Of a stretch of DNA of 34,913 nucleotides, positions 12,263 through 34,913 are shown piece by piece. Origin of the DNA: an uncultured Lachnospiraceae bacterium. GTDB lineage: Bacteria; Bacillota; Clostridia; Lachnospirales; Lachnospiraceae. The notes below the pieces were generated by a model, which saw nothing but the letters and a program-made list of their open reading frames with translations, searched no databases and had not been told where the DNA came from. Each line of letters opens with the position of its first letter. The first letter of the stretch is position 1. The DNA is taken from contig CANDFH010000005.1 of NCBI GenBank assembly GCA_947383945.1, positions 86,791 through 121,703 on the forward strand, read 5' to 3'. The translations under genes were made by a program, and so were the position numbers.

Positions 12263-12327
12263 TACTGCAAACTACTTTTGTTAAAACAACCCTTCTTTTA
12301 AAAGACAGCGCTTTTTTTGAAAAAGAC

Positions 12328-13830: not shown

Positions 13831-13905
13831 AATAAATCCTCCTTCTTTTAATATACAACTAAAAAGAATTTATAATAAAGCATCTCGCTCTATTATCTTG
13901 AGCAG

Positions 13906-13934
13906 ATCTGGAAACGCAGTCTGCGTTTCCAGAT
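13906..13934 (-). promoter_or_regulatory. perfect 14+14 palindromic stem-loop in the permease-to-solute-binding-protein intergenic region
   Basis: ATCTGGAAACGCAG-T-CTGCGTTTCCAGAT. A T7 run follows on the plus strand only. On the coding (minus) strand it is a strong hairpin with no U-tract, sitting 5' of the solute-binding-protein RBS. Confidence 0.5.
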
Positions 13935-13944
13935 ATTTTTTTAA

Positions 13945-14991: not shown

Positions 14992-14994
14992 CCC

Positions 14995-15927: not shown

Positions 15928-15931
15928 TCTA

Positions 15932-18487: not shown

Positions 18488-18564
18488 ACTTCCTCGCATT
18501 CCGCCGCACAAACGGCTTTTTAATCAAAGGAATTCAGTTTCTCCTTTTTCCTGAAATCATTCTG

Positions 18565-19185: not shown

Positions 19186-20666
19186 TTTGCCTCACCTACC
19201 CATCTTTTAATTTTTTTGCCCACCACAAACACAAGAGCAATCACAACAACCCCGGCAATCAGCCCCATATATTTTCCGAAATTGTCCTGCATCAGATCTT
19301 TGCGGTAGAATTTAAATGCTTTCGTGTAATATTTTCGGCTGTTTCCAAGCTCGAAGTATTCCATCGCCTCTTTGTAACGGCCTTCCTTCAAGTACGTTTT
19401 TCCGATACCGATATACGCGACCTCGCTGTTGGCGTTGCGCAGAAGCACCTCCTGCCAAAGTTCATAAGAAAGTGCTTCATTCCCTTCATTATGAGCCTTT
19501 AAAGCTCCGAGCAGCGCCTGCCCGTACTCTGTAATTTCATAGGTTAAAATACTGCCCAACTGAGAATCAAGGACATAAATCTTTGCCTGATCCTCGCTTA
19601 ATGCCAGCGACACCGGATTTCTTACAAGTCCCGCGCGGCTGCCCTTTCCGCCAAAAACAAACAGTGAATTTCCGTCGTAATCATAACAGAAAACCTTGCC
19701 TCCGGCATTGTCGAGAATAAAATAACACCCGTAATCCGTCGATGCAATATCCGTGAAGGACGACCATGCCGCCTCATCGGTCGCGTTGTACAAATCTCCA
19801 ATAATAGCTGTATTTCCAAGACGTCTTAATACATCTGTGCCGGTTGGATTCAGCCTTCTTACGGCATCTGCCCCATTTAAGTGATCCTCGGCGGACAGAT
19901 TGCTGATTGTCGCATAGACAAAGTTGCTTTTATCCACAAAAATATTGCTGTATTCTGTTGGAATAATCGTCTCCATCCTCTGCTTCTGCGCGTCGGTAGA
20001 AAAATAATTCTTCCAGATATATTCAAACATGGATACCGAAACTTGTGTAGCCCCCATAAAACCCTGAAATTCTCCGTTTCGGTCAAACTCCACCAAACCC
20101 ATATTGATACCGTAAGCAATCACATAAATTCTTCCGGCTCCGTCCACAATAACTTTTGTAGGCACATAGTTCTGACTTTCTGTAATCAGCTCGGTTTCCG
20201 GTCTTCCAATCTGCCGGATATACTCTCTGTTCGGAGAGAATTCTACAACTCTTCCATTTCCAGAATCAGCGACATAAATATGCCCTTCCTCCGTCACAAA
20301 CACGCCCTGCGGGCTTTTTAAACTGTCCTCAGCTCCATCTGCTGTAAAAGAGGATAATTCCCACAACATTGCCCCTGAAGTATCAAGCGCGACAATTCTG
20401 CTGTTCTCCATATCCGCCACATACAAGGTGTCATGTTTTAAAAACAAGTCCTGCGGATTTTTTAACTTTGTACCCGACTGTATATATGACAATTCTTCTG
20501 CATACAAATACGCAGGAGGCTGCAGCACATCCTCGCCCCACCAGTCGTAACTGTAAGTGTCGTAAGGCATCGTATCCGCAGAGACTTCGCTTGCAGGGAA
20601 AAGCAGGCTTCCCGCCGCTGCAAGCACACAGAGCAGTTTTCCGAACTTCTTCTTCGAATTCTTCAT
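19164..20666 (-). CDS. secreted NHL-repeat beta-propeller protein with C-terminal TM anchor
   Basis: Internal ATG at 20664-20666 (M32 of the tracked ORF) gives 500 aa. Signal peptide MKNSKKKFGKLLCVLAAAGSLLFPASEVSA. At least 5 NHL-type blades (LYVADMENSRIVALD, IYVADSGNGRVVEF, IYVIAYGINMGLVEF, YFILDNAGGKVFCYD, IYVLDSQLGSILTYE). A TPR-like helical segment, then a C-terminal TM helix YMGLIAGVVVIALVFVVG. Confidence 0.7.
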   Translation of the reverse strand: MKNSKKKFGKLLCVLAAAGSLLFPASEVSADTMPYDTYSYDWWGEDVLQPPAYLYAEELSYIQSGTKLKNPQDLFLKHDTLYVADMENSRIVALDTSGAMLWELSSFTADGAEDSLKSPQGVFVTEEGHIYVADSGNGRVVEFSPNREYIRQIGRPETELITESQNYVPTKVIVDGAGRIYVIAYGINMGLVEFDRNGEFQGFMGATQVSVSMFEYIWKNYFSTDAQKQRMETIIPTEYSNIFVDKSNFVYATISNLSAEDHLNGADAVRRLNPTGTDVLRRLGNTAIIGDLYNATDEAAWSSFTDIASTDYGCYFILDNAGGKVFCYDYDGNSLFVFGGKGSRAGLVRNPVSLALSEDQAKIYVLDSQLGSILTYEITEYGQALLGALKAHNEGNEALSYELWQEVLLRNANSEVAYIGIGKTYLKEGRYKEAMEYFELGNSRKYYTKAFKFYRKDLMQDNFGKYMGLIAGVVVIALVFVVGKKIKRWVGEAKCNISGR

Positions 20667-20682
20667 TGTTTGCTCCCCCCTT

Positions 20683-21561
20683 CTATTCCTTGATACCGGA
20701 AGATGCCATTGTCTCGATAATATTACTCTGGCTGATAATAAAGATCGCAATCGGCACAACCATCATAATTACCGTTACTGCCGCAGTTGCTCCAGCTCTG
20801 GAAATACCTCCTGCCGCAATCTGGGATAATGCGTAAGGCAGAGTCTTTAGTTCTTCGCTGTAAATGTAATTTGCGCCCTGCGCATTCCACAAATCCTGGA
20901 AGGAAAAGATAATCAGCGTCAGCCATGCAGATTTTACCTGCGGCATTGCAATTCGGAAAAATGTGTGAATCTCGGTCGCACCGTCAATTCTTGCCGCCTC
21001 CAAAAGAGTATCCGGTATCTGCTCCATAAACTGTTTCATCAGGAACAGACCGAGCGGTTTTGCAATCGCAGGAACAACGATCGCTACATAATGGTCAAGC
21101 CATCCGATCTTGCTCATAATCAGATAGTTTGGAATCGCTGTGACCTGACCGGAGAACATCAAGGCTGTAACAATAATGCCAAAAATCAGGTTGCGTCCCG
21201 GGAACTTATGTTTTGAGAGTGCGTAAGCGCACATACTGGCAATAATCAAATGACCTGCCGTTCCGGTTACCGTAATAAATACGGTGTTAAATATGTATCT
21301 TGAAAACGGCACCCATGACTCGGACATCAGCACAAACACATCATGGTAGTTTTTTCCCGTAGGATTTCTCACAAACAACCGCGGCGGGAACACAAACAAT
21401 TCCTCAAGTGGTTTTAAGGAGTTGCTGATGGAAAGTACAAGCGGCACAACCATAAATGCACCCATTAAGATAAGAAGGAACATATTCAGGAAATTACCTG
21501 CCGCGGAATGGTTCGGTTTTGCCCGTTTCTTTTTCTTAAAAACTGCTGAAACTGCACTCAT
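20683..21561 (-). CDS. carbohydrate ABC transporter permease (MalG-type)
   Basis: 292 aa, multi-TM. The ATG at 21559-21561 lies 1 nt after the upstream TAA, indicating translational coupling. Confidence 0.85.
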   Translation of the reverse strand: MSAVSAVFKKKKRAKPNHSAAGNFLNMFLLILMGAFMVVPLVLSISNSLKPLEELFVFPPRLFVRNPTGKNYHDVFVLMSESWVPFSRYIFNTVFITVTGTAGHLIIASMCAYALSKHKFPGRNLIFGIIVTALMFSGQVTAIPNYLIMSKIGWLDHYVAIVVPAIAKPLGLFLMKQFMEQIPDTLLEAARIDGATEIHTFFRIAMPQVKSAWLTLIIFSFQDLWNAQGANYIYSEELKTLPYALSQIAAGGISRAGATAAVTVIMMVVPIAIFIISQSNIIETMASSGIKE

Positions 21562-21562
21562 T

Positions 21563-22507
21563 TTATTGACCCACCTTTCGTAACAGGAATTGTACCAGCT
21601 TGTTGCAGAGTATCATAACGATAAACAAGAGCGTGGCGATCGCGGAGGCGTAACCCATCTCAAAACGGATTGAGCCGTAATCGACAAGATGTGAGACAAC
21701 CGTGTGCGCCGCGTAGCTGACGCTTGGGAAACCTGCGAGAGCCGCCAACTGGTCATGGATGGCAAACGACGAAGTAATTGTCATAACCGCACCAAACATC
21801 AGCTGCGGCTTCATGGAAGGAAGTGTGATATACCAAAGTTCCTGAAAACGGTTTTTGATACCATCCATATAACCTGCCTCGTACAAAGTGCGATCCACGT
21901 TCTGCAGACCTGCAATAAAGGACAAAAACCCTGTTCCCATACTCATCCACAAAACAACGACAATCAAAATCGGCTGAATGTACGTCGCATCCTCAAACCA
22001 CAGAATTGGTGAATAAATCGCGCCAAGCTTCATCAGCCAGCCGTTTGCAAAACCGTAAGAGTCACTGGAAAAAATAAACTTCCAGATAAAATACGCCTGC
22101 CCTGAAATTGTTGGGGCATAAAAGATCAGCGTCATAATCGCGCGCAGCACCGGTCTTTTGATCTCATTGATCATCCATGCGATAATCAGCGCCATAAAAT
22201 AGCCGATCGGTCCGGTAACAACTGCAAACAGGAATGTATTCTTTACTGCCGTCAAAAATACATCGTCCGAAAAAAACAAATTTATATAGTTCTGCCAGCC
22301 GATAAACCGCGGCGATTCGAGTACATTGTAGTAGGTGAAGCTCAATCCCATCGAAGTCACGACCGGAACCAGATAAAATACCGTAAAAATAATGCAGTAT
22401 GGAGCAATAAACAAAAACGATATTTTCGATTTTTTCATCTGCTTCCAGGTTGCTTTCCACCTTCTTGCAATATCTGCTTTCAGAACATGAATCAAACCCT
22501 TCTCCAT
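21563..22507 (-). CDS. sugar ABC transporter permease (MalF-type)
   Basis: 314 aa, multi-TM. ATG at 22505-22507. GAGGT RBS. Confidence 0.85.
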   Translation of the reverse strand: MEKGLIHVLKADIARRWKATWKQMKKSKISFLFIAPYCIIFTVFYLVPVVTSMGLSFTYYNVLESPRFIGWQNYINLFFSDDVFLTAVKNTFLFAVVTGPIGYFMALIIAWMINEIKRPVLRAIMTLIFYAPTISGQAYFIWKFIFSSDSYGFANGWLMKLGAIYSPILWFEDATYIQPILIVVVLWMSMGTGFLSFIAGLQNVDRTLYEAGYMDGIKNRFQELWYITLPSMKPQLMFGAVMTITSSFAIHDQLAALAGFPSVSYAAHTVVSHLVDYGSIRFEMGYASAIATLLFIVMILCNKLVQFLLRKVGQ

Positions 22508-22521
22508 TTCATACCTCGTTT

Positions 22522-22554
22522 CTATATAACTGCGGTTTTAAGCCGCAGTTATAT
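22522..22554 (-). promoter_or_regulatory. perfect 13-bp inverted repeat stem-loop between the solute-binding-protein gene and the permease genes (mRNA stabiliser or attenuator candidate)
   Basis: TATATAACTGCGG-TTTTAAG-CCGCAGTTATATA. On the mRNA it sits immediately 5' of the permease RBS and has no U-tract. Confidence 0.55.
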
Positions 22555-22618
22555 ATCGATGATTGACTTGATTTTCAAACTATATTATTTTGAACTTATG
22601 TCAGTGTCCGTCTTATTT

Positions 22619-25501
22619 TTATTCCAGACCAAACTCAATACGCTTGTTTGTAATCTCATTATTGATTGTCTTAACATAATCCTCAAGCGTTTCTCTCGGA
22701 TCCTCCTTGGTGTTATACACTGCATAGAATGCATTTTTCACATGGCGCTCTGTAAAATATCCGCCTGGAATCTCCGGCACGACCTTCACCCATTCCATCT
22801 GAGCTTTCAGCTGTTTTAAATCCCTGCTGGTCCACGGCAGATTTTCCAGCGCCGCTGTATTTGCCGTCGCGACACGTCCCGCAACACCCAGGATATTTTC
22901 AACTTCAATGCCGTAGGAAGTCTGCGTCTCTTCGCTCATCCACCATTTTAAGAATTCCCATGCTCCTTCTTTGCGCTTGGATGTATCCAGAATAATAACC
23001 GCCGACTGCCCTGCTAAAACAGAGTGATCAACATTGCCCGATTCATCTTCGTAGCCCGGAACTAACGTAAAGCCCCAAAGCCCCTTGATCTCCGGTGCAA
23101 ATACCGAAAGGTAGCTGTACTGCGTATAATCTGCGATTGCCAGCGGCATCTCGCCTGTTCGGAAACGGTTTGCAAAATCATAAGTAACCGGCATACGGTA
23201 ATCAACATAATTACTCGTCCACTGCGTGAAGGCCTGCACCGCTTCCTCTGTATCCAACCCGCTCGCCTTACCGTCCGGCGAATAATAAGAACCGCCATGC
23301 TGGTACAAACACATACCATAAGAAGAATAATCAGGACTGATACCAATGTTCATATTATTTTTCTGTATCACTGCCAGACACTCATAGAACTGATCCCAAG
23401 TCCGCGGCACGGTTAAACCAAGCTCTTTTAAAATATCCGCCCGATAAAACAGCATCGGGAAAGAGGAGGTCTGCGGCAGTGCATAAACGCCGTCGTTCAG
23501 CCGGAACATATCGAGCGCATTGTCAAAAAATCTGCTGGAAACTTCGTCAAAGTCATCAAACTGCGTCAAATCTGCCGCCGCTTTGCGGAGCGCGTAATTG
23601 ACCGGCTCTTTACTTCCAACTCCCAGCGCAACGTCAGGTCCCTGACCGGCAAGTGTTGCGGACAGCAGGATATCGCGGTTTACAAGTTTTACATTGACTG
23701 GGATTCCCTTTGCTTCCACAAAGTAATTGTCCACAAGATTTTTTAAAACGGTCGCCTGGTCACGCCCGGAACCGCTCGCACTTGCTGCCGCCGATGCGTC
23801 TGCAAGCATCCATACTTCAACAGTGCCGCTGCCGTACACATTACCGATGCTTTCATAATCTTCTGTAAAGCTTGCGATAAACGCACGCCACTCATGCAGC
23901 ACCTTCTGCCAGAATCCTGCCTTTGCTTTTGGCAGTTTTGCATCCGCCTGCTGCAAGAGCAGATAATCAATCTGAAGCGGCTGTTCCTTCATCGAGAGCG
24001 TCCAGGAACCAAGCGAAATAATATTATCTTTAAATGCCGACCACTGTTTCGCGATGGTTGATGGCTTCTTGGACATATTTCCAAGCTGGATAATCAGGTT
24101 GTCAAGCGCTACAGACTCACTTCCGCTGGAACCTTTCGCGTAAGCCTTCACCCGCGCGGATAAGTTCTCAATAATCTGGTGCTGTTCTTTTAAGATTGCA
24201 AGAGCCTCTGGCGTCTTGATGTCAAGCTGATAGTCTCTGAGAGAATCCGGCGAGGAGCCAATTACCATAAGCAGCTGCCTGTATGCCTGGTTCAGTTCAA
24301 AAATACTGTTGTCCGCCTCGTTTAGAATCTGAGCCATCTCCTCGCCCAGCGCAACTTCCAGAGTCAAGGTATGAGTACCTGCCGTCAAATAAAAACGATA
24401 ACTTTCCTCATCACTGCCAAACGTTGTGACATCCCAGTTGTTATCATAGTAAAATCTTAATTCTGCCGCCTCCTGAAATGGAAGTTCCCCATCAATGGAA
24501 AGCGAACGTACCACAGTTACACCCTGCTTTATACTCTGCTTGTATTTCGCTGCAATCTCATAAAAACCATCCTCTGGAACCGACACTTCCCATGTAATCC
24601 ACTGCCCTGTCTGGTTCCAGTTGTTTCCGCCGATGCTGTTCATTCGAATCTTGGACGGATGATACGGCTCAGTGAGCGGCGAAGTTCTGTCGTTCACCGG
24701 GTAGAGCGTGGAATCGGACTTATATACTGCATCCTCGCCCTGAATTTTAACAGCCGCCGCCAGAGCGACATCCTTTGCTCCTTTCGCCGCTGCCGCCGCG
24801 TAATAATCCGCATAGCTTGGAATTTCCGGCTGTTTTGACAAAGTAATCGCGCCGACTGCCATCGGCTCTTTGATTGAGGTTAAAGAAATGGTGTTTGTTC
24901 CTTTATTAAAATAAAAATAGTATGCGTCCGACTCATATCCCGAACTATCCTCGCACCATGCGCTGCGCCAAATTCTCTCCTCGACCTGCGTCGGTCGGAT
25001 ATCATTGCCGCGCGCGTCCATTCGAACCTCCGTCTCATTTTTCCAGACCCTTGTAAACTCCAGAGACTGCGCCCCGTCAAACGGAAGTTCTCCATTGATA
25101 CGAATCTCCCGCTCAATTGTATTGCCCTTGCCTTCCGTCGGATAATAGTCAAGTTTTACCTGGTACAGTCCCGCTTCCGAAACATCAAACTCCCAGACAA
25201 TCTCACCTTCCTCCGCGGTCAGTGCAACGCTTCCGGCAAAACCTTCATAATTATCCTGACGCGAAAATCCTGCGTCCGCCGTTTTGTAATCGCCGCCTGC
25301 AATCCTTATTTCGCCTGCTGGATATCCTGCATCCGAATGGTCTGCCAAGTAATCCCGGTAGCTTTTTGTATCGTAAACGATCGACAAAAGCTCATCTTCC
25401 TGCTCCGTTTCACCCGCAGCCTGCATAGGTCGTGGGAACGCAAGTACCGCAAACGCTGCCGCCAGCAACCCTGCTTTCAACTTTCTTTTCATTGCCATCA
25501 T
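22619..25501 (-). CDS. giant extracellular solute-binding protein with N-terminal tandem beta-sandwich (carbohydrate-binding-like) modules
   Basis: About 960 aa from the ATG cluster at 25490-25501 (MMAMKRK...). AAGGGGG SD. Signal peptide MKRKLKAGLLAAAFAVLAFPRPMQAAG. Two internal repeats (INGELPFDGAQSLEFTRVW / IDGELPFQEAAELRFYYDNNW). The C-terminal ~430 aa resemble a family-1 sugar-binding domain. The N-terminal 17 aa of the ORF track were rejected. Confidence 0.7.
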   Translation of the reverse strand: MMAMKRKLKAGLLAAAFAVLAFPRPMQAAGETEQEDELLSIVYDTKSYRDYLADHSDAGYPAGEIRIAGGDYKTADAGFSRQDNYEGFAGSVALTAEEGEIVWEFDVSEAGLYQVKLDYYPTEGKGNTIEREIRINGELPFDGAQSLEFTRVWKNETEVRMDARGNDIRPTQVEERIWRSAWCEDSSGYESDAYYFYFNKGTNTISLTSIKEPMAVGAITLSKQPEIPSYADYYAAAAAKGAKDVALAAAVKIQGEDAVYKSDSTLYPVNDRTSPLTEPYHPSKIRMNSIGGNNWNQTGQWITWEVSVPEDGFYEIAAKYKQSIKQGVTVVRSLSIDGELPFQEAAELRFYYDNNWDVTTFGSDEESYRFYLTAGTHTLTLEVALGEEMAQILNEADNSIFELNQAYRQLLMVIGSSPDSLRDYQLDIKTPEALAILKEQHQIIENLSARVKAYAKGSSGSESVALDNLIIQLGNMSKKPSTIAKQWSAFKDNIISLGSWTLSMKEQPLQIDYLLLQQADAKLPKAKAGFWQKVLHEWRAFIASFTEDYESIGNVYGSGTVEVWMLADASAAASASGSGRDQATVLKNLVDNYFVEAKGIPVNVKLVNRDILLSATLAGQGPDVALGVGSKEPVNYALRKAAADLTQFDDFDEVSSRFFDNALDMFRLNDGVYALPQTSSFPMLFYRADILKELGLTVPRTWDQFYECLAVIQKNNMNIGISPDYSSYGMCLYQHGGSYYSPDGKASGLDTEEAVQAFTQWTSNYVDYRMPVTYDFANRFRTGEMPLAIADYTQYSYLSVFAPEIKGLWGFTLVPGYEDESGNVDHSVLAGQSAVIILDTSKRKEGAWEFLKWWMSEETQTSYGIEVENILGVAGRVATANTAALENLPWTSRDLKQLKAQMEWVKVVPEIPGGYFTERHVKNAFYAVYNTKEDPRETLEDYVKTINNEITNKRIEFGLE

Positions 25502-25521
25502 CAACCCCCTTCGGCATTCTT

Positions 25522-27585
25522 TTATCGTTTCAGCGTCCATTCCTCCTGCCACTCAATCTTCATATCCGTTCCGTCAAAATCGATTGGAAGCCAGACATAT
25601 CTGGAGTCTGAGAGATTATCGCTGTTCCAGCGGTCGCCCATATAGACAATCGTACCGTCATCGGTCTGAAAAATACAGGTGCTTTGGGAATCAAACGTCG
25701 TCCGCTTATCGTCCCCAATACAAGGATCCCCCTTATCTTCCCACTCTCCGAAAATCTCATCTGCAACCCAGTATCTCGCCTGGTTCGGCGCCCATCCGGT
25801 CGCGCCGGAAGTCATCATATAATACCTGCCGTCTTTTTTTATAATCGCCGGCGCCTCTCTCTGCGCACCCGGATACAGACGAATAAAATCTTTGCCGTAC
25901 ACTGCATTTTCTGGTTCTGTGCAGAGGTAATCATAAGCATCGTTCAGTTTTGATATGTAGATGGTTAAGTTTTCCTCGCTGGAATAGATAATGTACGCCG
26001 TGCCGTCATCATCGATAAAGAGGTTCATATCGCGCGCCATACCCTTGCTTTGCGGATACATATCTTCCTGATCTTCCGGGCAAGTGTTAAGCCGGTAGCG
26101 GTCAACAAAACGGAATGGTCCATAAGGGGAATCACTGACCGCAAGCCCCGCGCTGGCCGCAGCATAATTTGCGCTGCTCGTTTCCGTCGGACCATCGGCG
26201 TGAAACCATATAAGATATTGCTTTGTCTTTTCATTGTAAATCATCTTAGGACGTTCAATTACAGAAGTTGAATCATTGATGCAGCGATATACATTATCGA
26301 GCTGTTCTTTGGTATATCCCGCATAGAGTTCTTTAAAATATTCGTCCGTGTCAAGCTCCTCACGGCTTGTCACATTGCGCATTACAACACCTTCAAATTT
26401 CCAGTTGTAAAGATCGTCGGAACTGTAGGCGCAAATCCCGCCGCGGTAGCCTTTTGTTTTATCCTCTCCAACCCACCACCACTTCTCTGACGATTCGCCG
26501 GTCTCTTTATCGGTCACCGTAAGTTTCTGCACCTGACCGCCGTGCGCCTGTATTTTATTTCCATCCTGATCCTGCCAAATCTTACCTGGTCGAAATGAAC
26601 TATATATCATTTTCTTTTCCAACCCTTCAAATGATTTTTTTAAATTTTCATACGCTGTTCTAATTTCCTGCTCTGAAGCGTTTTCTTTAAGAGCGACCGC
26701 CTCCGTTCTCGACTCGATATATCCGCCGACAGTCGCATCGCGGTATTCTTTTAGTTCCTCGTCGGACAACTCGGTTGCCGAGAGGAGCATCGCGAGCATC
26801 TCCCCATTGTACTCTGGCACTGCCCTCACAATAATATAGCTTATCTCGGGGTTTTTCATCGCATCTTTTCCACGTTTTGAATTATAGATAAATAAATTTA
26901 ACTCTCCGTCCTCTACATCCAATTCAAACGTGCTTTTTATATCTTGAAATTTCAGAATTTTCTGCTCTTCTACAACCTTTTTCCCCTCCGCTTGAATATC
27001 GATGGTTCTCGCGGAAAACGGATTATAAAAACCACATGTCACCTCATAAGTTCCTGCTGGAACTTCAAAGCTGTATCGGTAGCCTGTATCATCATTGTAC
27101 TCGACATTATCGGCAAGCACCCACTTTGCATCTTTGGGACTTTCCCCTTCTGCATCTCCCTCCGCAACCATATAGTCCTGCGGTATATAGCCCCAGATTC
27201 TGCCGCTGTTCTCGTCCGAACCATACTCTTGATCCGGCTTTGTCTGAAACAATCCAAGACCTGTTGAAACGGTATCTGCACGGGAGGCGCAGTTTACAAA
27301 ATAGAGAAGAAAATCATTTTCAAACAAAACTTCTTTGGTCGGGAGAGCCTTGACTTCACCAAGTGGTTTCCCCTGCTGACTTTCTGTCGGCGTTGCTTCT
27401 GGTGAGGGTTCTTCCGGCTTGTTTGTAGGATTTGTCTTTTCATCTTGAACAGCATCCCCCGTTCCCTGCGTTTCTATTGTAGGTTTTGGATTTTCCACAT
27501 CCTCACCCTTCCCGCAGCCTGTCAGCGCAAATACAGCAGCGGCAAGAAATGATAATGACTTTCTGTAGCTCCTCGCTTTCCACAT
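25522..27585 (-). CDS. GH43-like (5-bladed beta-propeller) glycoside hydrolase lipoprotein, first gene of the operon
   Basis: 687 aa. Lipoprotein signal MWKARSYRKSLSFLAAAVFALTGC. The C-terminal ~330 aa carry GH43-type motifs ARDMNLFIDDDGTAYIIYSS and EAPAIIKKDGRYYMMTSG (putative acid Glu). GAGGTGA RBS. Confidence 0.7.
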   Translation of the reverse strand: MWKARSYRKSLSFLAAAVFALTGCGKGEDVENPKPTIETQGTGDAVQDEKTNPTNKPEEPSPEATPTESQQGKPLGEVKALPTKEVLFENDFLLYFVNCASRADTVSTGLGLFQTKPDQEYGSDENSGRIWGYIPQDYMVAEGDAEGESPKDAKWVLADNVEYNDDTGYRYSFEVPAGTYEVTCGFYNPFSARTIDIQAEGKKVVEEQKILKFQDIKSTFELDVEDGELNLFIYNSKRGKDAMKNPEISYIIVRAVPEYNGEMLAMLLSATELSDEELKEYRDATVGGYIESRTEAVALKENASEQEIRTAYENLKKSFEGLEKKMIYSSFRPGKIWQDQDGNKIQAHGGQVQKLTVTDKETGESSEKWWWVGEDKTKGYRGGICAYSSDDLYNWKFEGVVMRNVTSREELDTDEYFKELYAGYTKEQLDNVYRCINDSTSVIERPKMIYNEKTKQYLIWFHADGPTETSSANYAAASAGLAVSDSPYGPFRFVDRYRLNTCPEDQEDMYPQSKGMARDMNLFIDDDGTAYIIYSSEENLTIYISKLNDAYDYLCTEPENAVYGKDFIRLYPGAQREAPAIIKKDGRYYMMTSGATGWAPNQARYWVADEIFGEWEDKGDPCIGDDKRTTFDSQSTCIFQTDDGTIVYMGDRWNSDNLSDSRYVWLPIDFDGTDMKIEWQEEWTLKR

Positions 27586-27664
27586 AAAAAAATCACCTCA
27601 TAATCGCCCAATTATATTGAATCTTTTTCTTCTTTTTTAGTACTTATGCCCTAACTACTTTTTC

Positions 27665-27693
27665 AGTATATACCAAAACTATTGTATTGTCAA
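27665..27693 (-). promoter_or_regulatory. SigA-type promoter (-35 TTGACA, 17 nt, -10 TATACT) for the GH43 / solute-binding-protein / ABC operon
   Basis: Minus-strand read: TTGACA(27688-27693)-17nt-TATACT(27665-27670), about 75 nt upstream of the GH43 ATG. Confidence 0.6.
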
Positions 27694-27860
27694 TCGATTT
27701 ACCTTAATTTTTTTAGATTTCTTTCAGTAATTTTTCACAATACTTTATAAAAAATCACTGGTCAGGGCAAAAAACATACACAGCTCCCAAAGAAACCACA
27801 GTGGGAATCATACATATTTTCAAGGATTAAAACACTCTGAAAAAAACGCTTTATAATAAA

Positions 27861-27897
27861 AATCTGCGGATACTACTCAAACTTCTCAAAACCGCAG
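27861..27897 (-). terminator. terminator-like hairpin (7-bp stem, 21-nt loop, U-run)
   Basis: Minus read: TCTGCGG...CCGCAGA followed by TTTTTATT. Confidence 0.35.
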
Positions 27898-27932
27898 AGA
27901 TAAATTATTCTGTTGGAAGTATGTTCCTGCAC

Positions 27933-27963
27933 AGAAAAAAGAATCCTGCTTCACAGGATTCTT
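27933..27963 (-). terminator. canonical rho-independent terminator
   Basis: Minus read: AAGAATCCTG-TGAAG-CAGGATTCTT followed by TTTTTTCTGT. 10-bp stem, 5-nt loop, U6. Confidence 0.7.
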
Positions 27964-28009
27964 CGCCGCAGTGCATTTGTTTTATAGGACACAATTTCCT
28001 ATAAAATAA

Positions 28010-28110
28010 AAAAGCTGCCGCACAAAGAATGGCATACACAGAATTTTATAGATTGCATTAATACAAAATCCATACTCTGTATATCTTTCTCTTTGTGCGG
28101 CAGCTTTTAT
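28010..28110 (-). terminator. large 18-bp-stem hairpin with about 62-nt loop followed by U-run (complex terminator or structured RNA)
   Basis: AAAAGCTGCCGCACAAAG ... CTTTGTGCGGCAGCTTTT; the minus-strand read is followed by TTTTTTATTTTAT. Confidence 0.45.
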
Positions 28111-28355
28111 AATCAGCAGTCTGTTTTATAACAAAACACTCTTTCAAAATACTGTAGTACTACAGCAGACATTTGCTGCACTTTACAAGTTTTTCAAAAA
28201 GTCATAATATAGAATTTATAGAAATATAAATATTTATTTTTTAATAATTAAAATGCTAAATTTATATATTTCTTCTATAATATTTCTTTTTTAAAACAAT
28301 TTAAAAACAAAAACATGCAGACTGGTGTTTCATTTGGAAAACTGCTCTTAACTTC

Positions 28356-29789
28356 TTAAATTTCCACCGGCTCAAACCGTATTCTCATTTTCGGCAGTGC
28401 TGTGATGACGGTGTACGTATTATACAATCCATCTTCCAAAGAAAGGTCATTCTCACCGCTTGCTGGCGGCGCGAATATTTTTAATGATAAATCGCATGCT
28501 TCTTTTAAAGGCTTTTCAAAAAATGCTCCCATCAAATCAATCGTTTTTGCTTTCGGAGATTTATAGAACCACTTTCCATTCAGCTCCAGCATTAAGTTTG
28601 AATCATCTTCAAATGTAACCTCACAGAAATGAGGATTGCAGTCAAAGTGCAATGGGATCGCCAGTCCGTCGGCATCCTCCGCACCGCCCCAGCGCAGTGT
28701 TGCAGGAAGGGAAACTTCCTCCCCGACAGTCATCTCAGGGCTGAAATAATCGTCGTGAATAATCTCTTTGTAAGTGTAAAGCAGCGGCTGCGGAATACCA
28801 ACCTCCGCGTTATTTGGATCTTCAATTTCAAGCCCTAATCTGCCGCGGTCACGGAACTGATACATTGAAAAGTTTGTAAACCAAGCTGCATTTTCCTTCT
28901 TTATCAAATCGCAGAATTCTTTTACCATCGCCGCCTGGTCGTAAGGTCCTGTCACATCTCCATCCGCATTCAGCTCGCTCATCATCATCGGCTTTGCCAC
29001 GCCGCCGGAAAGCTCCTTAAAACGCTCGTAAGTGCGCTTTGTGTAGCGGAAAATGTCTTCGATATCGCCTCTGCTGTGCGATTTGCCGCCGCGTTCTGCC
29101 ACATCGTAAGGCCAGCCCCAGTGAAGTGCAAAATACCGGTCAATCGACCACATATCTGCATCTCTTACAGCTTGTGCAAAATCCTCTTCCTTCTCGATCT
29201 CCGTCTTGCCTTCATCCACACCGCCAGTACATAAAATAGTCTGTACATTCGGCGCATATTCTTTTAAAACTTTGCAGAAACGACTGTAAAATTCACCGAT
29301 TTCCTTGTAGCTGGCACGCTTTGTAAAACTAAACCAATTTCCTGTACATTCATGATTGATGCGCAGCATCATACGGCCAAATGGCTTTAAATCCTTGGCA
29401 ATCGCAATAAGATGCTCATCCGATACATGCGGGTCGATGGTCAATGTCAGTGTTACATCCTGCCCATGCCTGCGGATATCGCGCATACAATCAAATGGTT
29501 CGCCCTCTGTATTTCCGTTCAGACCGCCCTTATAGGTAAAATAATCATCATAAGGATAATCCCACGCAAAAGAAACATTTGGATTTGCATGAACCACGCT
29601 CGCTCTTCCCGGCCATCCTTCATCCAGCGGATAATAGCAGTACATAAGACTGATACTGCGGTGCGGTCTGCCCAAAATCTGCAAAATATAATCCTGATTT
29701 ACATACTCTCCACGCTCGGAGCCATCTCCCAGATCAACCGCGCATTTCGCTTTTCCCTGATGGATGGAATATACTTTTAAATCGCTCAT
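28356..29789 (-). CDS. cytoplasmic hypothetical protein, possibly a TIM-barrel glycoside-hydrolase-like enzyme of unassigned family
   Basis: 477 aa, no signal peptide. GGAAGGG RBS. Motifs LRINHECTGNWF and PMMMSELNADGD loosely resemble clan GH-A acid/base and nucleophile strands (speculative). Last gene of the kinase-GH94 operon. Confidence 0.4.
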   Translation of the reverse strand: MSDLKVYSIHQGKAKCAVDLGDGSERGEYVNQDYILQILGRPHRSISLMYCYYPLDEGWPGRASVVHANPNVSFAWDYPYDDYFTYKGGLNGNTEGEPFDCMRDIRRHGQDVTLTLTIDPHVSDEHLIAIAKDLKPFGRMMLRINHECTGNWFSFTKRASYKEIGEFYSRFCKVLKEYAPNVQTILCTGGVDEGKTEIEKEEDFAQAVRDADMWSIDRYFALHWGWPYDVAERGGKSHSRGDIEDIFRYTKRTYERFKELSGGVAKPMMMSELNADGDVTGPYDQAAMVKEFCDLIKKENAAWFTNFSMYQFRDRGRLGLEIEDPNNAEVGIPQPLLYTYKEIIHDDYFSPEMTVGEEVSLPATLRWGGAEDADGLAIPLHFDCNPHFCEVTFEDDSNLMLELNGKWFYKSPKAKTIDLMGAFFEKPLKEACDLSLKIFAPPASGENDLSLEDGLYNTYTVITALPKMRIRFEPVEI

Positions 29790-29894
29790 TTTATTTCCCT
29801 TCCAGGCAAAGCAAACCTGAAAATTATATCAGATATCTGCTCTGCCCCTATATACTTATGATTTATCAGATTACTCTGCAGCACTTATAAAAAA

Positions 29895-32288
29895 TTACAT
29901 TACAAGAATTACTTCATTTTCCTCTGCCATATCCGCTGCTGCCACATAAGGCTTATCCAGTTTCTTTCCATTCAGAGAAAACTCCTGAAAGCCTCCCTCC
30001 GCGCCGTTTGGATTCTTTACAACAATATGAAGCTTTTTGCCGCGGAACACTTTATCCATCGTAAATTCCTTCCAATCTGCCGGAACTGCCGGGCAGATCC
30101 AAAGACCGTCAAGATCCGGGCGCATACCGCAGATTCCTTCCACACAGCCAACCATACAGGTGGAAGCTGTTCCGGTCAGCCAATGCACGTGAGAACGTCC
30201 CTCAAACGGGGATTCTGTACTCTCAGTAAACTGTCCATGTACGTAAGGCTCAAGCTTTCTTGTATCCGCATCGTCATTCTGGGAAGCCGGAGAACTCTCC
30301 GTAAAGTACTCAAACGCGCGGTTTCCATGTCCCATCAGGGCTTCTGCCAGAATAATCCATCCCTGCGGCTGTGAGAAAATACCGCCGTTCTCCTTTGTGG
30401 ACGGGTTAAACAAAAGTGCCAGCGCGCCGTCAAACGCATGATCTACATAAGATGGAGCCATCACTCTTACACCGTACTTTGTATTTAACTCGCGGTGTAC
30501 CGACTCCAGAGCCTTTTCTGCCTGCTCTTTTGTCGCCAGACCACTGATTACTGCCCAGGACTGCGGGTTCAGCCACATACTTGCCTCCGGGTCATGCTTG
30601 GAACCAATCACCTGCCCGTCCTCCTTGATCCCGCGGACATAGCGGTCATCTTCCCAGCACTCCTTCTGGATAATATCGCCAAGCTCTTTCTGAGTTTTAT
30701 CAAGGTACGCAATATATTCCGTATCATTTAGATCGCTCGCAAAGCCTTTTAAAACTGTTATTGCATAGTACAGCTGCATTGCCACAAACGTAGACTCGCC
30801 CTTTTTGCCAAGACGCAGACAGTCGTTCCAGTCCGCATGAAGTCCCGCCGGCATTTTATGATCGCCAAGACGCTCCATTGAAAACTGTATCGCGCGCTTT
30901 AAGTGATCGTAAACCGTGCCTTCTTCCTTGTTTGCATAAGGAATCACTTCATTGATAAAATCCTTGTTGCCAGATTCTGACACATACTTCCACACCGTAG
31001 GGAACAGCCAGAGTGCATCGTCCGCGCGGTATGCCGGATGCCCTGTCGCACGCACATAAGAATCGTCGTCCGGCGTATCCTCATGACCCGCATTGTGATC
31101 GTACTTTACAAGAGGAAGCCCGCCGCCGTTATTTACCTGGGCAGAAAGCATAAAGCGAATCTGCTTTAACGCCATCTCCGGGTCAAGGTGAATAATACCC
31201 TGGATGTCCTGCACAGTATCGCGGTAACCGTAGCCGTTGCGCTGTCCGCAGTAAATGAACGACGCTGCCCTTGACCATGTAAATGTGATAAAGCACTGAT
31301 AAGCGTTCCATGTATTCACCATGCTGTTAAACGCTTCATCCGGCGTGCTGACCTGGAAATTTGCAAGTTTTGCATGCCAATAGTCGATCAATTCTTTCTT
31401 CTCCTGCTCGATAACCGCAAGATCTTCATAACCATTTACAATCTTTGCCGCAGCGGACGGAGTGGTCTGACCAAGAAGAAAAGCGATCTCTTTCGTCTCG
31501 CCAGGCTGCAATGTCAGAGCAGTATGTAATGCGCCGCAGCCGTTGGAATTGTAGTTTAACACATTGTCACATGCGCCGTTCTCAACAGCAACCGGATTGC
31601 CGTAAGTGTGATAATTGCCAAGAAACGCAGCTTTATCGCCGTTGTAGGAAGTCACCGGCGCGCCTGCCATCGCAAAGAAACGCTCCCTCCAGTTGCTGCC
31701 TTCCTCGTTCTTGCCGCAATTTTCGTTGATGCTCTGAACAATCATATTATTTTTAAAGTATGTTCTTGTGATAAACAGCGTATACTGCAAATTCACCTGA
31801 TCCTGCTCATAATTGCTGTCGTTTGTAAACTCAGCATAGCCAAATGCAGAAATTTTGCGCACCTTGTCCGTTGTGTTTGTAATCTTCGCGCGCCAAACTT
31901 CGTAAGTCTTATTTAACGGTACATAGTAAAGTACCTCTGAATGGATGCCCGCATAATCCGCAGCGATATTTGTGTAAGCAGTTCCATGACGGCACTCGCT
32001 TTTATAAGTATCAAGCGGTTTTGCCACCGGCTGCCACGATGCCGACCAAAAGTCCTTTGTCTCGTCATCCCTGAGATAAACATAGCGTCCCGGCGTATCG
32101 TCGCTGTTAAAATGATAGCGGATAATTCGCCCGTTCGCACCGCTCTTTACAAAACTGTAACCCCCCGCATTGTTTGAAATAATTGCGCCGTAAGCCGGAG
32201 AGCCAAGATAATTTGCCCATGGTGCCGGCGTGTTCGGCTTTGTAATTACATACTCTTTTGCCGCCTCATCAAAATAACCGTATTTCAT
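29895..32288 (-). CDS. GH94 glycoside phosphorylase (cellobiose/cellodextrin/chitobiose phosphorylase family)
   Basis: 797 aa. The N-terminus MKYGYFDEAAKEYVITKPNTPAPWANYLGSP...NNAGGYSF is near-identical in pattern to known cellobiose phosphorylases. The catalytic-Asp region ADWNDCLRLG is present. The 797-aa length also fits. Confidence 0.88.
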   Translation of the reverse strand: MKYGYFDEAAKEYVITKPNTPAPWANYLGSPAYGAIISNNAGGYSFVKSGANGRIIRYHFNSDDTPGRYVYLRDDETKDFWSASWQPVAKPLDTYKSECRHGTAYTNIAADYAGIHSEVLYYVPLNKTYEVWRAKITNTTDKVRKISAFGYAEFTNDSNYEQDQVNLQYTLFITRTYFKNNMIVQSINENCGKNEEGSNWRERFFAMAGAPVTSYNGDKAAFLGNYHTYGNPVAVENGACDNVLNYNSNGCGALHTALTLQPGETKEIAFLLGQTTPSAAAKIVNGYEDLAVIEQEKKELIDYWHAKLANFQVSTPDEAFNSMVNTWNAYQCFITFTWSRAASFIYCGQRNGYGYRDTVQDIQGIIHLDPEMALKQIRFMLSAQVNNGGGLPLVKYDHNAGHEDTPDDDSYVRATGHPAYRADDALWLFPTVWKYVSESGNKDFINEVIPYANKEEGTVYDHLKRAIQFSMERLGDHKMPAGLHADWNDCLRLGKKGESTFVAMQLYYAITVLKGFASDLNDTEYIAYLDKTQKELGDIIQKECWEDDRYVRGIKEDGQVIGSKHDPEASMWLNPQSWAVISGLATKEQAEKALESVHRELNTKYGVRVMAPSYVDHAFDGALALLFNPSTKENGGIFSQPQGWIILAEALMGHGNRAFEYFTESSPASQNDDADTRKLEPYVHGQFTESTESPFEGRSHVHWLTGTASTCMVGCVEGICGMRPDLDGLWICPAVPADWKEFTMDKVFRGKKLHIVVKNPNGAEGGFQEFSLNGKKLDKPYVAAADMAEENEVILVM

Positions 32289-32397
32289 ACCTTTACCCCT
32301 TTCTATGCATACTGCAAATAATTTTTATGCAGTACTGCATCATCACAAGTTTGAAATTATGTTTCTTTCAAACTATCTTTTTTGAATAGATACTTCT

Positions 32398-32426
32398 ATT
32401 TTATATGTTTTTTTTATAACTTGCAA
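32398..32426 (-). promoter_or_regulatory. candidate internal SigA promoter (-35 TTGCAA, 17 nt, -10 TAAAAT) upstream of the GH94 gene
   Basis: Minus read: TTGCAA(32421-32426)-17nt-TAAAAT(32398-32403). The ~100-nt leader contains the palindromes at 32304-32340. Confidence 0.4.
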
Positions 32427-32572
32427 TGTATTATTTTATATTCAGAAAATTTTTTCGCCGATTTACGAAATGTTTCGTATAAAAGCAATCAAATATAGAA
32501 GCAGTCAAAACAATATCCAAATCACAATACTGCAAAAAATAAGAATATTATTGCTGTTTTAGAAAAATACCA

Positions 32573-33610
32573 TTATCGCTTTGGCATCGGTTTTAAACAG
32601 AGCAGTGTTTGTCGGATTGCTTCTAACTGGCCGCGGACTGCTTTTGCATCTCCCCTCTTTAGTTTTTTCATTAAACTATCTTCTTTCCACTTAATATCCA
32701 TACTCCAAAAAGCATGAATGATCGCATACAGATAAGGGTACATTCGTTTTTGTTCTTCCGAAAACGGGCGTTCTTTGTTGTATCCTTCTAAAAATGCCGG
32801 AAGAATCACACTTTCTGGATCTTTGTATTCCTTTGGATACTCCATCAGCCTTGCCTGAAATACTGCTTGCATCACCGCATCACAATACAAATTGTTATCC
32901 CCACAGCGGTTAAAATCAAAAACTCCAAGATGCCCTTCTTTTGTCTGATACAAATTACAATCGCTGAAATCCCCCTGAACCGCATACCGCGGCTTACTTT
33001 TTAAAGGAGAAAGCACTTCCATGTATTCTTTATAAATTTTTGTAATATTTTCATACAAAGGCTGGTCAATCGCTAAAAACTCTTCTGCATGGGATAAAAA
33101 GTCCGTGTATGCAAACAAATCATTATCCGTAAACGGATCAAACAACACACTGTACTCTACATGAAATTGATTTGCTTCTGCAATATTATGTGTTTTTGCC
33201 AATAATTCACCCGCCTTTTTGGCAAGACAATCATCAATTTCTGAAAGTTCACCATCCACAAACTCCTCCACTGTTACAATCACAGAATATTTATCGATCC
33301 AATACCACTTTGCAAAATTCTGCCCTGTTTTATATAAGATTGGAGTATCAATTCCCGAATCTTTTAACAGCGCGGCAAACTGACTCTGTCTTTCAATCAA
33401 TTCTATAGACACATCAGGCTCATTTTTCAGCCGAACCACAACCGACGAGCCGTTTTGTAAATCCGCTTTTACAATAAGTCTTACTTCCCCAGACTCCAAA
33501 CCATCTTCCTTCGAATCATATCTTTGAAGTTCCGTATACGAAACTGCTTTGGAAGGAACATGATAATCCTTTAAAATTGCATCTATAGTACATAAAGAAA
33601 TCTCCAGCAT
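32573..33610 (-). CDS. APH/choline-kinase-fold phosphotransferase (putative sugar kinase) with non-canonical QGD catalytic loop
   Basis: 345 aa. Brenner-like motif VQGDFSDCNLY (Q in place of the usual H) and metal-binding GVFDFNRCGD. GGGAGGG RBS. First gene upstream of GH94. Confidence 0.65.
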   Translation of the reverse strand: MLEISLCTIDAILKDYHVPSKAVSYTELQRYDSKEDGLESGEVRLIVKADLQNGSSVVVRLKNEPDVSIELIERQSQFAALLKDSGIDTPILYKTGQNFAKWYWIDKYSVIVTVEEFVDGELSEIDDCLAKKAGELLAKTHNIAEANQFHVEYSVLFDPFTDNDLFAYTDFLSHAEEFLAIDQPLYENITKIYKEYMEVLSPLKSKPRYAVQGDFSDCNLYQTKEGHLGVFDFNRCGDNNLYCDAVMQAVFQARLMEYPKEYKDPESVILPAFLEGYNKERPFSEEQKRMYPYLYAIIHAFWSMDIKWKEDSLMKKLKRGDAKAVRGQLEAIRQTLLCLKPMPKR

Positions 33611-33717
33611 AAAAACCCTCCCAAATGTTTCGCACCTTGATTTTCTATGAATCTAACAAAAATAAGCAAAATTTTAATTTGATTGTAATATAGTGAATTA
33701 TTTTTATAAATTAAACT

Positions 33718-33747
33718 ATTATATACCGCATTTTATAGGCTTTTCAA
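33718..33747 (-). promoter_or_regulatory. SigA-type promoter (-35 TTGAAA, 18 nt, -10 TATAAT) for the kinase-GH94 operon
   Basis: Minus read: TTGAAA(33742-33747)-18nt-TATAAT(33718-33723), about 105 nt upstream of the kinase ATG. A tandem repeat lies immediately upstream. Confidence 0.5.
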
Positions 33748-33773
33748 AAGCTAGATATAATATCTATACACAA

Positions 33774-33844
33774 GTTACACTGTTCAAATATACTTTTCTA
33801 CAAGACATAAATTACACTGTTCAAATATACTTTTCTACAAGACA
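33774..33844. repeat. tandem direct repeat, two identical 33-nt units (period 37)
   Basis: TTACACTGTTCAAATATACTTTTCTACAAGACA occurs at 33775-33807 and 33812-33844, 27-97 bp upstream of the kinase promoter -35. Confidence 0.85.
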
Positions 33845-33967
33845 CAAATTATCAAAATATTCACTTTATTTCACTTAATTATAAACTTATTATTATATCA
33901 TATTATTTATGTTTTTTCAAGCAAAAAATGGTATCAATTTTTTTGAAAAAACAGCACCCTTTTTTGT

Positions 33968-33997
33968 TTGACAGAGTATTATTTTTTTTGATACAAT
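33968..33997 (+). promoter_or_regulatory. plus-strand SigA-type promoter (-35 TTGACA, 18 nt, -10 TACAAT), divergent from the kinase operon
   Basis: TTGACA(33968-33973)-18nt-TACAAT(33992-33997). It would give a ~310-nt leader before the 34318 ORF. Confidence 0.5.
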
Positions 33998-34317
33998 AAC
34001 AGCACAAGTTACAGTACAAAAGAAACTTGTTTTGTAGATAACTTGTTTGTATTTTGGAGCATTGGAACTGACATAATAAGTCTGGTTCGTCCAATGCCTG
34101 AACCCAATCTGCGCGCGGCGCGGGCAAATAACTACCATAAACAGAGCAGCCAAGCAGAATAAATACAAGGTCAAGATGCTTATACGGAATGTAATAGTTG
34201 GTATTAAAGATAAGGTCTTGCAACACGCTTGGCTGGGGTAGGGAGGAAAAGAGGGTTGAAGGGATACGAAAAATATTTTAAACTTAAACACCAAAATTAA
34301 AAAGGAGGTCAACTGAC

Positions 34318-34908
34318 ATGCCAAACAATCTTTTTAAACTACGAACTTTAAAGAAACTTATGGCTGGAATACTGACAATATTTTTATGTATGTCAAAAAT
34401 TCCAGTAGCAGTATTAGCTAATAACACTTTACCAGATTATACTGACACAGGAATTAGAATCGTTAAAGATAATGAAGTTGAATTAGTAGAACAACTGATA
34501 AATGAAAAATATATTTTATATTCCGAACTTTTATCTACAGAAGATGAAAATAAAAAGAACGATTTACAAAAAAGATATACTATAATATGTCAGAAACTGC
34601 AAAAACTTGGAGTAAGTGAAGAGCTCCTTGAGGATATTCCATTAATAAATAATCCTGAATTTGCTCCTTACGCCACTCTTCCTAGTTTTGAAGCACTGGA
34701 GCAATTGTTTAAGTTTGATACATTCTATCAATACGGCTATGTTGGGTCAACCGTTTACAAATTTTATAATGTACTGGTTCATGATAAAAATGGAAGTAAA
34801 TTACATAGCACAAAAAAAGACAGTATTATTTTATGCGGCTCTTTATCAAATGTAAATCAACGTGAGTTCGATGAGCATACTTATGCAAAAGTCATATTTC
34901 CAGTATGA
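34318..34908 (+). CDS. hypothetical secreted/membrane-anchored protein in AT-rich island
   Basis: 196 aa. AAAGGAGGT RBS 9 nt upstream. N-terminal hydrophobic segment LMAGILTIFLCMSKIPVAVLA. Very AT-rich codon usage unlike its neighbours. No recognisable domain. Confidence 0.55.
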   Translation: MPNNLFKLRTLKKLMAGILTIFLCMSKIPVAVLANNTLPDYTDTGIRIVKDNEVELVEQLINEKYILYSELLSTEDENKKNDLQKRYTIICQKLQKLGVSEELLEDIPLINNPEFAPYATLPSFEALEQLFKFDTFYQYGYVGSTVYKFYNVLVHDKNGSKLHSTKKDSIILCGSLSNVNQREFDEHTYAKVIFPV

Positions 34909-34913
34909 ATTGA

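Follow-up and report, generated by a model that had tools for sequence, protein, structure and literature searches.

We analysed a stretch of 34,913 nt of contig CANDFH010000005.1 (below, the window; all coordinates are positions in it) and in it three neighbouring genes of the minus strand, which encode, in the direction of transcription, a kinase of the aminoglycoside phosphotransferase (APH) fold (33610-32573, 345 aa), a phosphorylase of glycoside hydrolase family GH94 (32288-29895, 797 aa) and a protein of 477 aa, here called p477 (29789-28356). An earlier reading of the letters without database searches (the sequence-only reading) had taken the three for a pathway of intracellular phosphorolysis fed by a neighbouring ABC import operon. 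Considering the phosphorylase, p477, the kinase and the operon jointly, we favour, with moderate confidence, another explanation: three genes that evolve independently have recently come to lie side by side here, and they do not form a conserved module.

Each of the three open reading frames (ORFs) has many conserved homologues, so that all three are real genes, and the ORF boundaries read from the letters were exact. We compared the surroundings of the phosphorylase gene at 80 metagenomic loci (67-92% identity, out of at least 565 relatives) and those of p477 at 80 genome loci of close orthologues (69-86% identity, from different species, with 10-kb flanks; 80 of at least 593). At the 80 GH94 loci neither p477 nor the kinase was found within the flanks, and the kinase is missing from all 160 loci. 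In the two closest relatives of p477 (85-86% identity) the gene is flanked by genes for D-Ala-D-Ala ligase (Ddl), a racemase and DUF1934 and, at its other end, by a methyltransferase gene and the S10 ribosomal operon. In the species of the window a glycan block of 17 kb lies between p477 and the methyltransferase gene, and the GH94 and kinase genes lie upstream of p477. Compared with the order in the closest relatives, the arrangement in the window is derived.

We propose that the phosphorylase would take non-reducing-end beta-1,4-linked glucose off imported gluco-oligosaccharides with a degree of polymerization of at least 3, releasing it as alpha-glucose-1-phosphate; it would probably act on pieces of cellodextrin, mixed-linkage glucan or glucomannan, and one ATP would be saved per glucose. 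p477 would be a cytoplasmic retaining beta-glycosidase trimming imported beta-linked oligosaccharides, most plausibly the beta-glucan fragments that the phosphorylase cannot finish, and hence may work alongside the phosphorylase in this species. The kinase would be an acquired gene at the edge of a mobile region with no demonstrable role in sugar metabolism, and the GH43/ABC/DUF5696 operon would be a separate unit. Since the pathway of kinase and phosphorylase fails, no new metabolic route is shown; the main points of interest are the GH26-like p477 family and the branch of GH94, here called Phe-type, to which the phosphorylase belongs.

The p477 family

More than 2,100 homologues of p477 were found (72-96% identity among the matches listed). 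The family is compact: clustered at 50% identity, it comprises 215 representatives. Relatives confirmed in a collection that holds one genome per species number at least 593, out of 599 stretches matched; among the members are Eisenbergiella, Acetatifactor, many Ruminococcus, R. callidus and Hominimerdicola, and the source name of every one of these relatives is "hypothetical protein". Searches of Pfam, NCBIfam, PADLOC and the PDB with the single sequence gave no match, and no description of p477 was found in the literature on GH26-like or new clan GH-A families.

The sequence-only reading had pointed to two weak GH-A-like motifs, RINHEC (residues 143-148) and MSELN (residues 270-274), and these turned out to be genuine. 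They hold R143, N145, H146, E147 and E272, which are invariant in 21 members sharing 27-83% identity, as are S24, E25, R26, W152, F153, D217, Y219, D276, Y310 and D314. When the family profile was searched against the whole PDB, the sole matches were chains of CtLic26A (E = 3.3e-7), the GH26 beta-1,3-1,4-glucanase domain of CelH from Clostridium thermocellum (2BV9, 2V3G). The profile alignment places RINHEanGnWF of p477 on RPLHEANGDWY of CtLic26A, which contains E109, and the "sE" of plvlsElnaD (the MSELN motif) on the "AE" of PIIIAEFA, which contains E222, so that the motifs align with the two catalytic glutamates of this GH26 enzyme; we take E109 to be the acid/base and E222 the nucleophile. 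The AlphaFold2 model of p477 (pLDDT 91.5, pTM 0.92) consists of a (beta/alpha)8 barrel (about residues 1-345) followed by a C-terminal beta-sandwich (about 350-477). In it E147 comes after the strand 140-144 and E272 after the strand 268-273, at the ends of strands 4 and 7, which are the catalytic positions of clan GH-A. Foldseek found remote matches only (TM score about 0.4, E about 1e-10), none of the solved families being close. From modelling and alignment p477 is predicted to have a clan GH-A fold, with E147 as acid/base and E272 as nucleophile.

The Pfam model of GH26 (PF02156) matched none of the 21 family members, even at E values up to 10. As the family profile finds CtLic26A and the Pfam GH26 model does not find the family, we describe p477 as a distinct family of clan GH-A with GH26 as its nearest relative. 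No signal-peptide-like hydrophobic stretch is seen at the N-termini of p477, the phosphorylase or the kinase, as judged from the translations alone; p477, for which the lack of a signal peptide had already been noted, is apparently a cytoplasmic protein.

What p477 might act on is suggested by distant members. One distant lineage (L178/L179) has two p477-like genes (40-41% identity) in one locus: the first stands at the end of a string of genes for a GlmA-like GH35, a GH94, a GH9 and a CBM11 protein, and the second follows, in a convergent string and after a gap of 2 bp, a second GH94 gene. In another locus (L182) the gene that comes 23 bp after a p477-like gene encodes a GH5 with CBM6 and CBM35. 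The contexts of four further distant members (P0244, P0245, P0254 and P0262) were uninformative, or their contigs too short. Together with the homology to the lichenase CtLic26A, the distant contexts make beta-glucan-type oligosaccharides the best guess for p477 and the adjacency of GH94 and p477 in the window possibly meaningful. Because the window had been chosen for this adjacency, the L178 case alone counts as independent support. Our first view, formed from the 160 loci, had been that GH94 and p477 are entirely unrelated; it was softened by the distant p477-like genes in GH94 operons. A partnership of the two in the breakdown of beta-glucan oligosaccharides is plausible but unproven.

Several observations weigh against this reading. 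None of the 80 loci of close p477 orthologues carries a GH94 gene within 10 kb, and none carries the kinase; with no link at 160 loci (80 of p477 and 80 of GH94) the partnership is not general. Most p477 genes are solitary amid housekeeping genes, and in 25 Ruminococcus-type loci p477 directly follows, after 38 bp, the gene of a class-A beta-lactamase-like lipoprotein. p477 is also present in a metagenome-assembled genome (MAG) labelled Ruminococcus bromii, a starch specialist, which is a poor fit with a role in beta-glucan use. On the side of the phosphorylase, a Phe stands at the +1 subsite where 8BOU, its nearest characterised relative, has a Tyr, so that its acceptor specificity may differ.

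Some of these contexts could also suit a housekeeping role of p477 on an endogenous glycan, in the turnover of cell-wall or storage polysaccharide and not in the use of dietary glycans, a reading that we consider unlikely. It would agree with the unusual conservation of the protein (69-75% identity between Lachnospiraceae and Ruminococcus/Oscillospiraceae), with its usual solitary position, with the place of its closest relatives between Ddl/racemase and methyltransferase/S10 operon genes, and with the lipoprotein gene in front of it. The distant members, however, have surroundings that clearly belong to plant-glycan use (GH94, GH9 and CBM11 in one case, GH5 and CBM6 in the other); a GH2 gene is found upstream of p477 in 7 loci; and the family does not extend beyond a narrow set of fibre-degrading anaerobes, its representatives being no more than the 215 mentioned above. 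In some loci the GH2 gene precedes that of the beta-lactamase-like lipoprotein. The lipoprotein itself (L034-L090, e.g. L041:8858-9955) matches Pfam Beta-lactamase2, has an SxxK motif and is encoded on the same strand as p477.

About as improbable is that p477 belongs with the operon that follows it, as a cytoplasmic enzyme of the beta-galactosidase type acting on imported side-chain oligosaccharides of arabinogalactan, its adjacency to GH94 being incidental. This operon, which the sequence-only reading had placed upstream and coupled to phosphorolysis, lies downstream of p477 in the direction of transcription, from 27585 down. It belongs to the glycan block of 17 kb (11078-27585), whose part at 12328-27585 (minus strand) encodes a GH43 lipoprotein, a giant solute-binding protein of 977 aa, two permeases, an NHL/TPR beta-propeller protein, a Yip1 membrane protein and a DUF5696 protein of 859 aa, with another ABC system and a LacI regulator after them. 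The GH43 domain of the lipoprotein, the first gene product and a GH43_24-like enzyme, matches 6eug ("beta-glucanase", E = 2.7e-67) and the exo-beta-1,3-galactanases 3vsf and 7bys (about 1e-37); the entries 6eug and 6euf presumably also come from work on arabinogalactan degradation. The operon is apparently directed at type II arabinogalactan. Since this polysaccharide has no beta-glucosidic bonds for GH94 to act on, the operon does not fit a beta-glucoside phosphorylase.

The assignment of p477 to this operon would be in line with the many beta-galactosidases and beta-galactanases in clan GH-A, and with two genome loci (L018, L022) and one metagenomic locus (L001) of other Lachnospiraceae in which p477 adjoins a cluster of the same make-up (giant binding protein, permeases, NHL/TPR, Yip1 and DUF5696 genes), the cluster being divergently oriented there. 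Yet the association is found in only 2 of the 80 genome loci; strong terminators lie between p477 and the operon in the window (see below); the cluster in L001 stands beside xylan-degrading and not galactan-degrading genes; and p477 has its nearest homologue in a beta-glucanase and not in a galactanase. From the binding protein gene to that of DUF5696 the core is found again in further Lachnospiraceae, once (L001) with the xylanase genes as neighbours. For DUF5696 neither a mention in the literature nor a sequence match in the PDB was found, and the cluster is likewise undescribed.

Returning to p477 as a beta-glycosidase acting on beta-glucan fragments, we tentatively suggest that it founds a new GH family of clan GH-A, remote from GH26: a highly conserved cytoplasmic beta-glycosidase, spread over several hundred clostridial species of gut and rumen (Ruminococcus and Lachnospiraceae among them), that might complete the intracellular breakdown of beta-glucan-type oligosaccharides with GH94. 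To our knowledge, this completion has so far been ascribed to GH1 and GH3 beta-glucosidases alone. A widespread family without a name in Pfam, NCBIfam or the databases is herewith given a predicted clan GH-A fold, two predicted catalytic glutamates and a testable link to beta-glucan. Should p477 prove active, it would be an additional family of carbohydrate-active enzymes that current annotation pipelines miss in key taxa of the human and animal gut.

The GH94 phosphorylase

That the middle gene encodes a GH94 phosphorylase had been seen from the letters and was borne out: both GH94 domains of Pfam (PF17167 and PF06165) match over their full length, the N-terminal super-sandwich with E = 9.7e-82 and the (alpha/alpha)6 catalytic domain with E = 3.5e-143. 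In the PDB the best match is 8BOU (E = 0; 64% global identity over the full length), followed by the chitobiose phosphorylase (ChBP) from Vibrio (2.4e-167) and by cellobiose phosphorylases (CBP; about 4e-124). At least 565 metagenomic relatives were confirmed. By these comparisons the 797-aa protein is to be regarded as a true GH94 member, of the clade of BpGH94MLG. The structure 8BOU was deposited as "N,N'-diacetylchitobiose phosphorylase" and is in fact BpGH94MLG of Blautia producta. According to the published account, this enzyme cleaves cellotriose, G4G3G and G4G4G3G and is inactive on cellobiose, laminaribiose, laminaritriose, gentiobiose, maltose and sucrose (PMC10318527).

The phosphate site of the window enzyme has R340 and the adjacent Arg conserved, and Gln640 replaces the His of CBP and ChBP, which we take to be H666 and H644, respectively. 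The exchange of His for Gln is found throughout the clade, the active 8BOU included. The catalytic general-acid Asp is D489 in the motif ADWNDC, which in the alignment falls on the Asp of the DWND motif in ChBP and CBP; its counterpart is labelled D515 (structure numbering) in the 8BOU paper (PMC10318527). The same account names a specificity position, Tyr653 in CBP and 8BOU and Val631 in ChBP, where the Val accommodates the N-acetyl group (PMC10318527). In the window enzyme this position is occupied by Phe627, and Phe is likewise found in 65 of 67 aligned metagenomic relatives; Leu623 stands at the position of Glu649 of CBP (+1 subsite). The far lower scores of the cellobiose phosphorylases and the exchanges of Glu649 for Leu623 and of Tyr653 for Phe627 separate the enzyme from the cellobiose phosphorylase subgroup, and Phe627 in place of the small Val631 separates it from the chitobiose phosphorylase subgroup. 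As far as its sequence tells, it is neither a classical cellobiose phosphorylase nor a chitobiose phosphorylase; with Phe627 it falls into a branch of the BpGH94MLG clade, the Phe-type, that is uncharacterised.

The PDB title of 8BOU and automatic annotation would make the enzyme an N,N'-diacetylchitobiose phosphorylase, which we think very improbable. In line with such an activity the Vibrio enzyme outscores the cellobiose phosphorylases, the Arg-containing segment GQRNGYGYRD is closer to the version in ChBP than to that in CBP, and chitobiose is not among the substrates reported for 8BOU in the parts of the account used here. Against it speak the Phe, and in 8BOU the Tyr, at the position of Val631; the experiments described there, by which 8BOU is a beta-1,4-gluco-oligosaccharide phosphorylase (PMC10318527); the location of close orthologues in glucomannan operons; and the lack of genes for the catabolism of chitin or N-acetylglucosamine (GlcNAc) among the window genes scanned.

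These operons were found with orthologues of 85-86% identity (L096-L101 and L121; e.g. L099:1700-12394), in which the GH94 gene comes last, after genes for a binding protein, a GH130, a CE2 esterase, a LacI regulator, a protein of the N-acylglucosamine-2-epimerase family, a second GH130 and an SGNH esterase. The gene set with two GH130 points to the use of glucomannan; the same set presumably serves the use of acetylated glucomannan in Roseburia. The neighbours of orthologues with 92% identity are unrelated to it. At the position of Glu649 of CBP the orthologues of L096-L101 and L121 have Gln, where the window enzyme has Leu. The Phe-type clade is uncharacterised, and in the species in which it closes glucomannan operons its members might catalyse the phosphorolysis of the glucose-beta-1,4-mannose linkage. 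We know of no phosphorylase acting on this linkage, nor of such an activity in GH94.

The kinase

The first gene product matches the Pfam family APH (PF01636) with E = 7.5e-8 and 32.9 bits (curated cut-off 23.2). It has 468 homologues. The ATP-binding K62, D214 and N219 of the catalytic loop and the metal-binding D232 are invariant in the family, and the motifs QGDxSxCN (the catalytic loop, here QGDFSDCN) and FDFNRxGD are conserved. In the HxD motif of this loop a Gln stands instead of the usual His, so that the sequence-only reading was accurate in calling the APH-fold kinase non-canonical. A PDB search with the sequence alone found no kinase, and with the family profile the sole APH-type match was the amicoumacin kinase AmiN (E = 0.008). 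The AlphaFold2 model (pLDDT 93.5) shows a generic APH fold, which Foldseek matched about equally well (TM score 0.45-0.6, 12-18% identity) with homoserine kinase II, AmiN, NahK, YihE, YtaA, LicA, aminopropanol kinase and macrolide kinases; APH(2'') structures matched less well (TM score about 0.35-0.4).

The gene differs from its surroundings in base composition (GC 0.383; GC at third codon positions 0.344 vs 0.43-0.55 in the other genes). Its homologues stand in three contexts, beside glutaredoxin and NUDIX/HAD genes, beside SDR and metallo-beta-lactamase-fold genes, and beside ADP-ribosyltransferase and resolvase genes, and in none of the three is there a carbohydrate gene. In Schinkia azotoformans (L012, L013) a gene with an ADP-ribosyltransferase toxin domain and a serine recombinase gene stand upstream of the homologue (51% identity), at a distance of 60 bp, a sign that some members of the kinase family may be carried by mobile elements. 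Searches of libraries of defence systems and phage proteins gave no match to the kinase.

Over 21895-33951 four contigs of the same species match the window at 99.9% identity, and beyond it they diverge. Past this point they carry an IS30 transposase gene and the end of a prophage (holin, amidase and the reverse transcriptase of a diversity-generating retroelement with bAvd); in the window the corresponding part (33951-34913) has a GC of 0.30, and two ORFs at this end (33917-34324, minus; 34318-34908, plus) have no match in Pfam, PHROGs or PADLOC. The kinase is probably an acquired small-molecule kinase of the APH superfamily, outside any sugar pathway.

What the sequence-only reading had proposed was that the phosphorylase splits a disaccharide, a NahK-like kinase phosphorylates the free sugar at its anomeric carbon, p477 assists as a glycosidase and the ABC operon supplies the substrate. 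It had in its favour that the three genes lie on one strand with no terminator-like site in between, that NahK (4ocv, E = 5e-10, TM score about 0.52-0.57) is among the structural matches of the kinase, and that the arrangement of the three genes is kept in the four contigs of the same species. We nevertheless hold this pathway to be highly unlikely. The kinase is absent from every one of the 160 related loci, its homologues have unrelated neighbours, its base composition is foreign, and it adjoins the strain-variable IS30/prophage region. The likeness to NahK is not specific: there is no sequence match, either with the single sequence or by profile, and by structure NahK (13-14% identity) is level with homoserine kinase II, AmiN, YihE, YtaA and LicA. 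No sugar-phosphate mutase or uridylyltransferase was matched among the window genes scanned, and the ABC operon is a separate unit, arabinogalactan-directed in appearance. The nearest characterised GH94, 8BOU, spares disaccharides in the account cited, so that no free monosaccharide would be expected to arise for the kinase (PMC10318527). Two findings that would have told against the proposal did not emerge, since the phosphorylase lies apart from the cellobiose phosphorylases and p477 is no housekeeping enzyme of a known type; the kinase, in contrast, shows no link to sugars.

Transcription signals and known systems

Spacers of 284 bp (kinase/GH94), 105 bp (GH94/p477) and 770 bp (p477/next gene) separate the genes, and all signals described here are on the minus strand. 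A consensus scan found a promoter-like site 5' of the kinase gene (33718-33747, TTGAAA-18-TATAAT, 11 of 12 matches), which is a match to the consensus and does not imply function. The kinase/GH94 spacer (32289-32572) is AT-rich (GC 0.25) and has two promoter-like sites (32426-32398 and 32519-32492) and no terminator-like site. About 40 bp 5' of the GH94 start codon it contains a perfect 14-bp palindrome, ATGCAGTACTGCAT (32327-32340), which occurs once in the window and may be an operator for some regulator. Outside the window this palindrome was found in contigs of the same species only, so that a regulon could not be defined.

In the GH94/p477 spacer (29790-29894) there is a hairpin without a U-run (dG -26.5 kcal/mol, z -2.3), and the scan of its 105 bp revealed no terminator-like site. 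The spacer also holds an extended -10-like sequence, TGATATAAT (29831-29823), with which a separate transcription of p477 is possible too; co-transcription of GH94 and p477 and their separate transcription are each possible.

About 250 nt past the stop codon of p477 begins a near-perfect hairpin of 98 nt followed by a U-run (approximately 28105-28008; dG -51 kcal/mol, z -10.5; none of 200 shuffled sequences folds as well), which we read as the intrinsic terminator of the p477 transcript. Its length exceeds that of ordinary terminators, so that it might instead represent a repeat element or a small RNA; in the AT-rich 250 nt before it there is no ORF of 80 aa or more. A second terminator-like hairpin with a 12-bp stem and a T-run was found by the scan at 27964-27938, and a promoter-like site ahead of the GH43/ABC operon at 27693-27665 (TTGACA-17-TATACT, consensus scan, 11 of 12 matches). 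The two terminator-like sites and the promoter-like site of its own make this operon a separate transcription unit. An Rfam scan of 27000-34913 gave matches at chance level only.

At the other end of the window, positions 1-9900 (minus strand) carry part of the S10/spc operon (S10, L3, L4, L2, S3, L5, L6, S5 and others). This DNA is about 81-87% identical to that of two mouse-gut Lachnospiraceae MAGs (L014, L015), a similarity that places the organism in the Lachnospiraceae.

Among known systems, BpGH94MLG from Blautia producta ATCC 27340 (8BOU) resembles the window phosphorylase in family, in its size of about 800 aa with four domains, in the Asp of ADWNDC and in the Gln at the position of the phosphate-site His; both lack a signal peptide and both are from gut Lachnospiraceae. 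The window enzyme differs in having Phe627 in place of Tyr653, and its locus is without the GH16, AraC and ABC transporter genes of B. producta.

p477 shares 13% identity with CtLic26A. The latter is a secreted cellulosomal endo-glucanase, whereas p477 seems to be a cytoplasmic protein, exceeds it in length by about 200 residues and, unlike CtLic26A, is equipped with a C-terminal beta-sandwich as in GH51, GH39 and GH79 enzymes.

A phosphorylase and a kinase work together in the bifidobacterial pathway for galacto-N-biose and lacto-N-biose, with a GH112 phosphorylase and the anomeric kinase NahK, and stand together in the chitobiose operon of Vibrio, with the GH94 enzyme ChBP and a sugar kinase. 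As in these systems, the phosphorylase gene of the window adjoins a kinase gene, and the kinase has the APH fold of NahK; the adjacency, however, recurs at none of the 160 loci, and genes for a mutase, a uridylyltransferase and an epimerase were not found. The amicoumacin kinase AmiN (6SUM), second by Foldseek, has the catalytic Asp, the Asn and the metal-binding Asp in common with the window kinase, with which it shares 17% identity; the window kinase has a Gln and not a His before the catalytic Asp.

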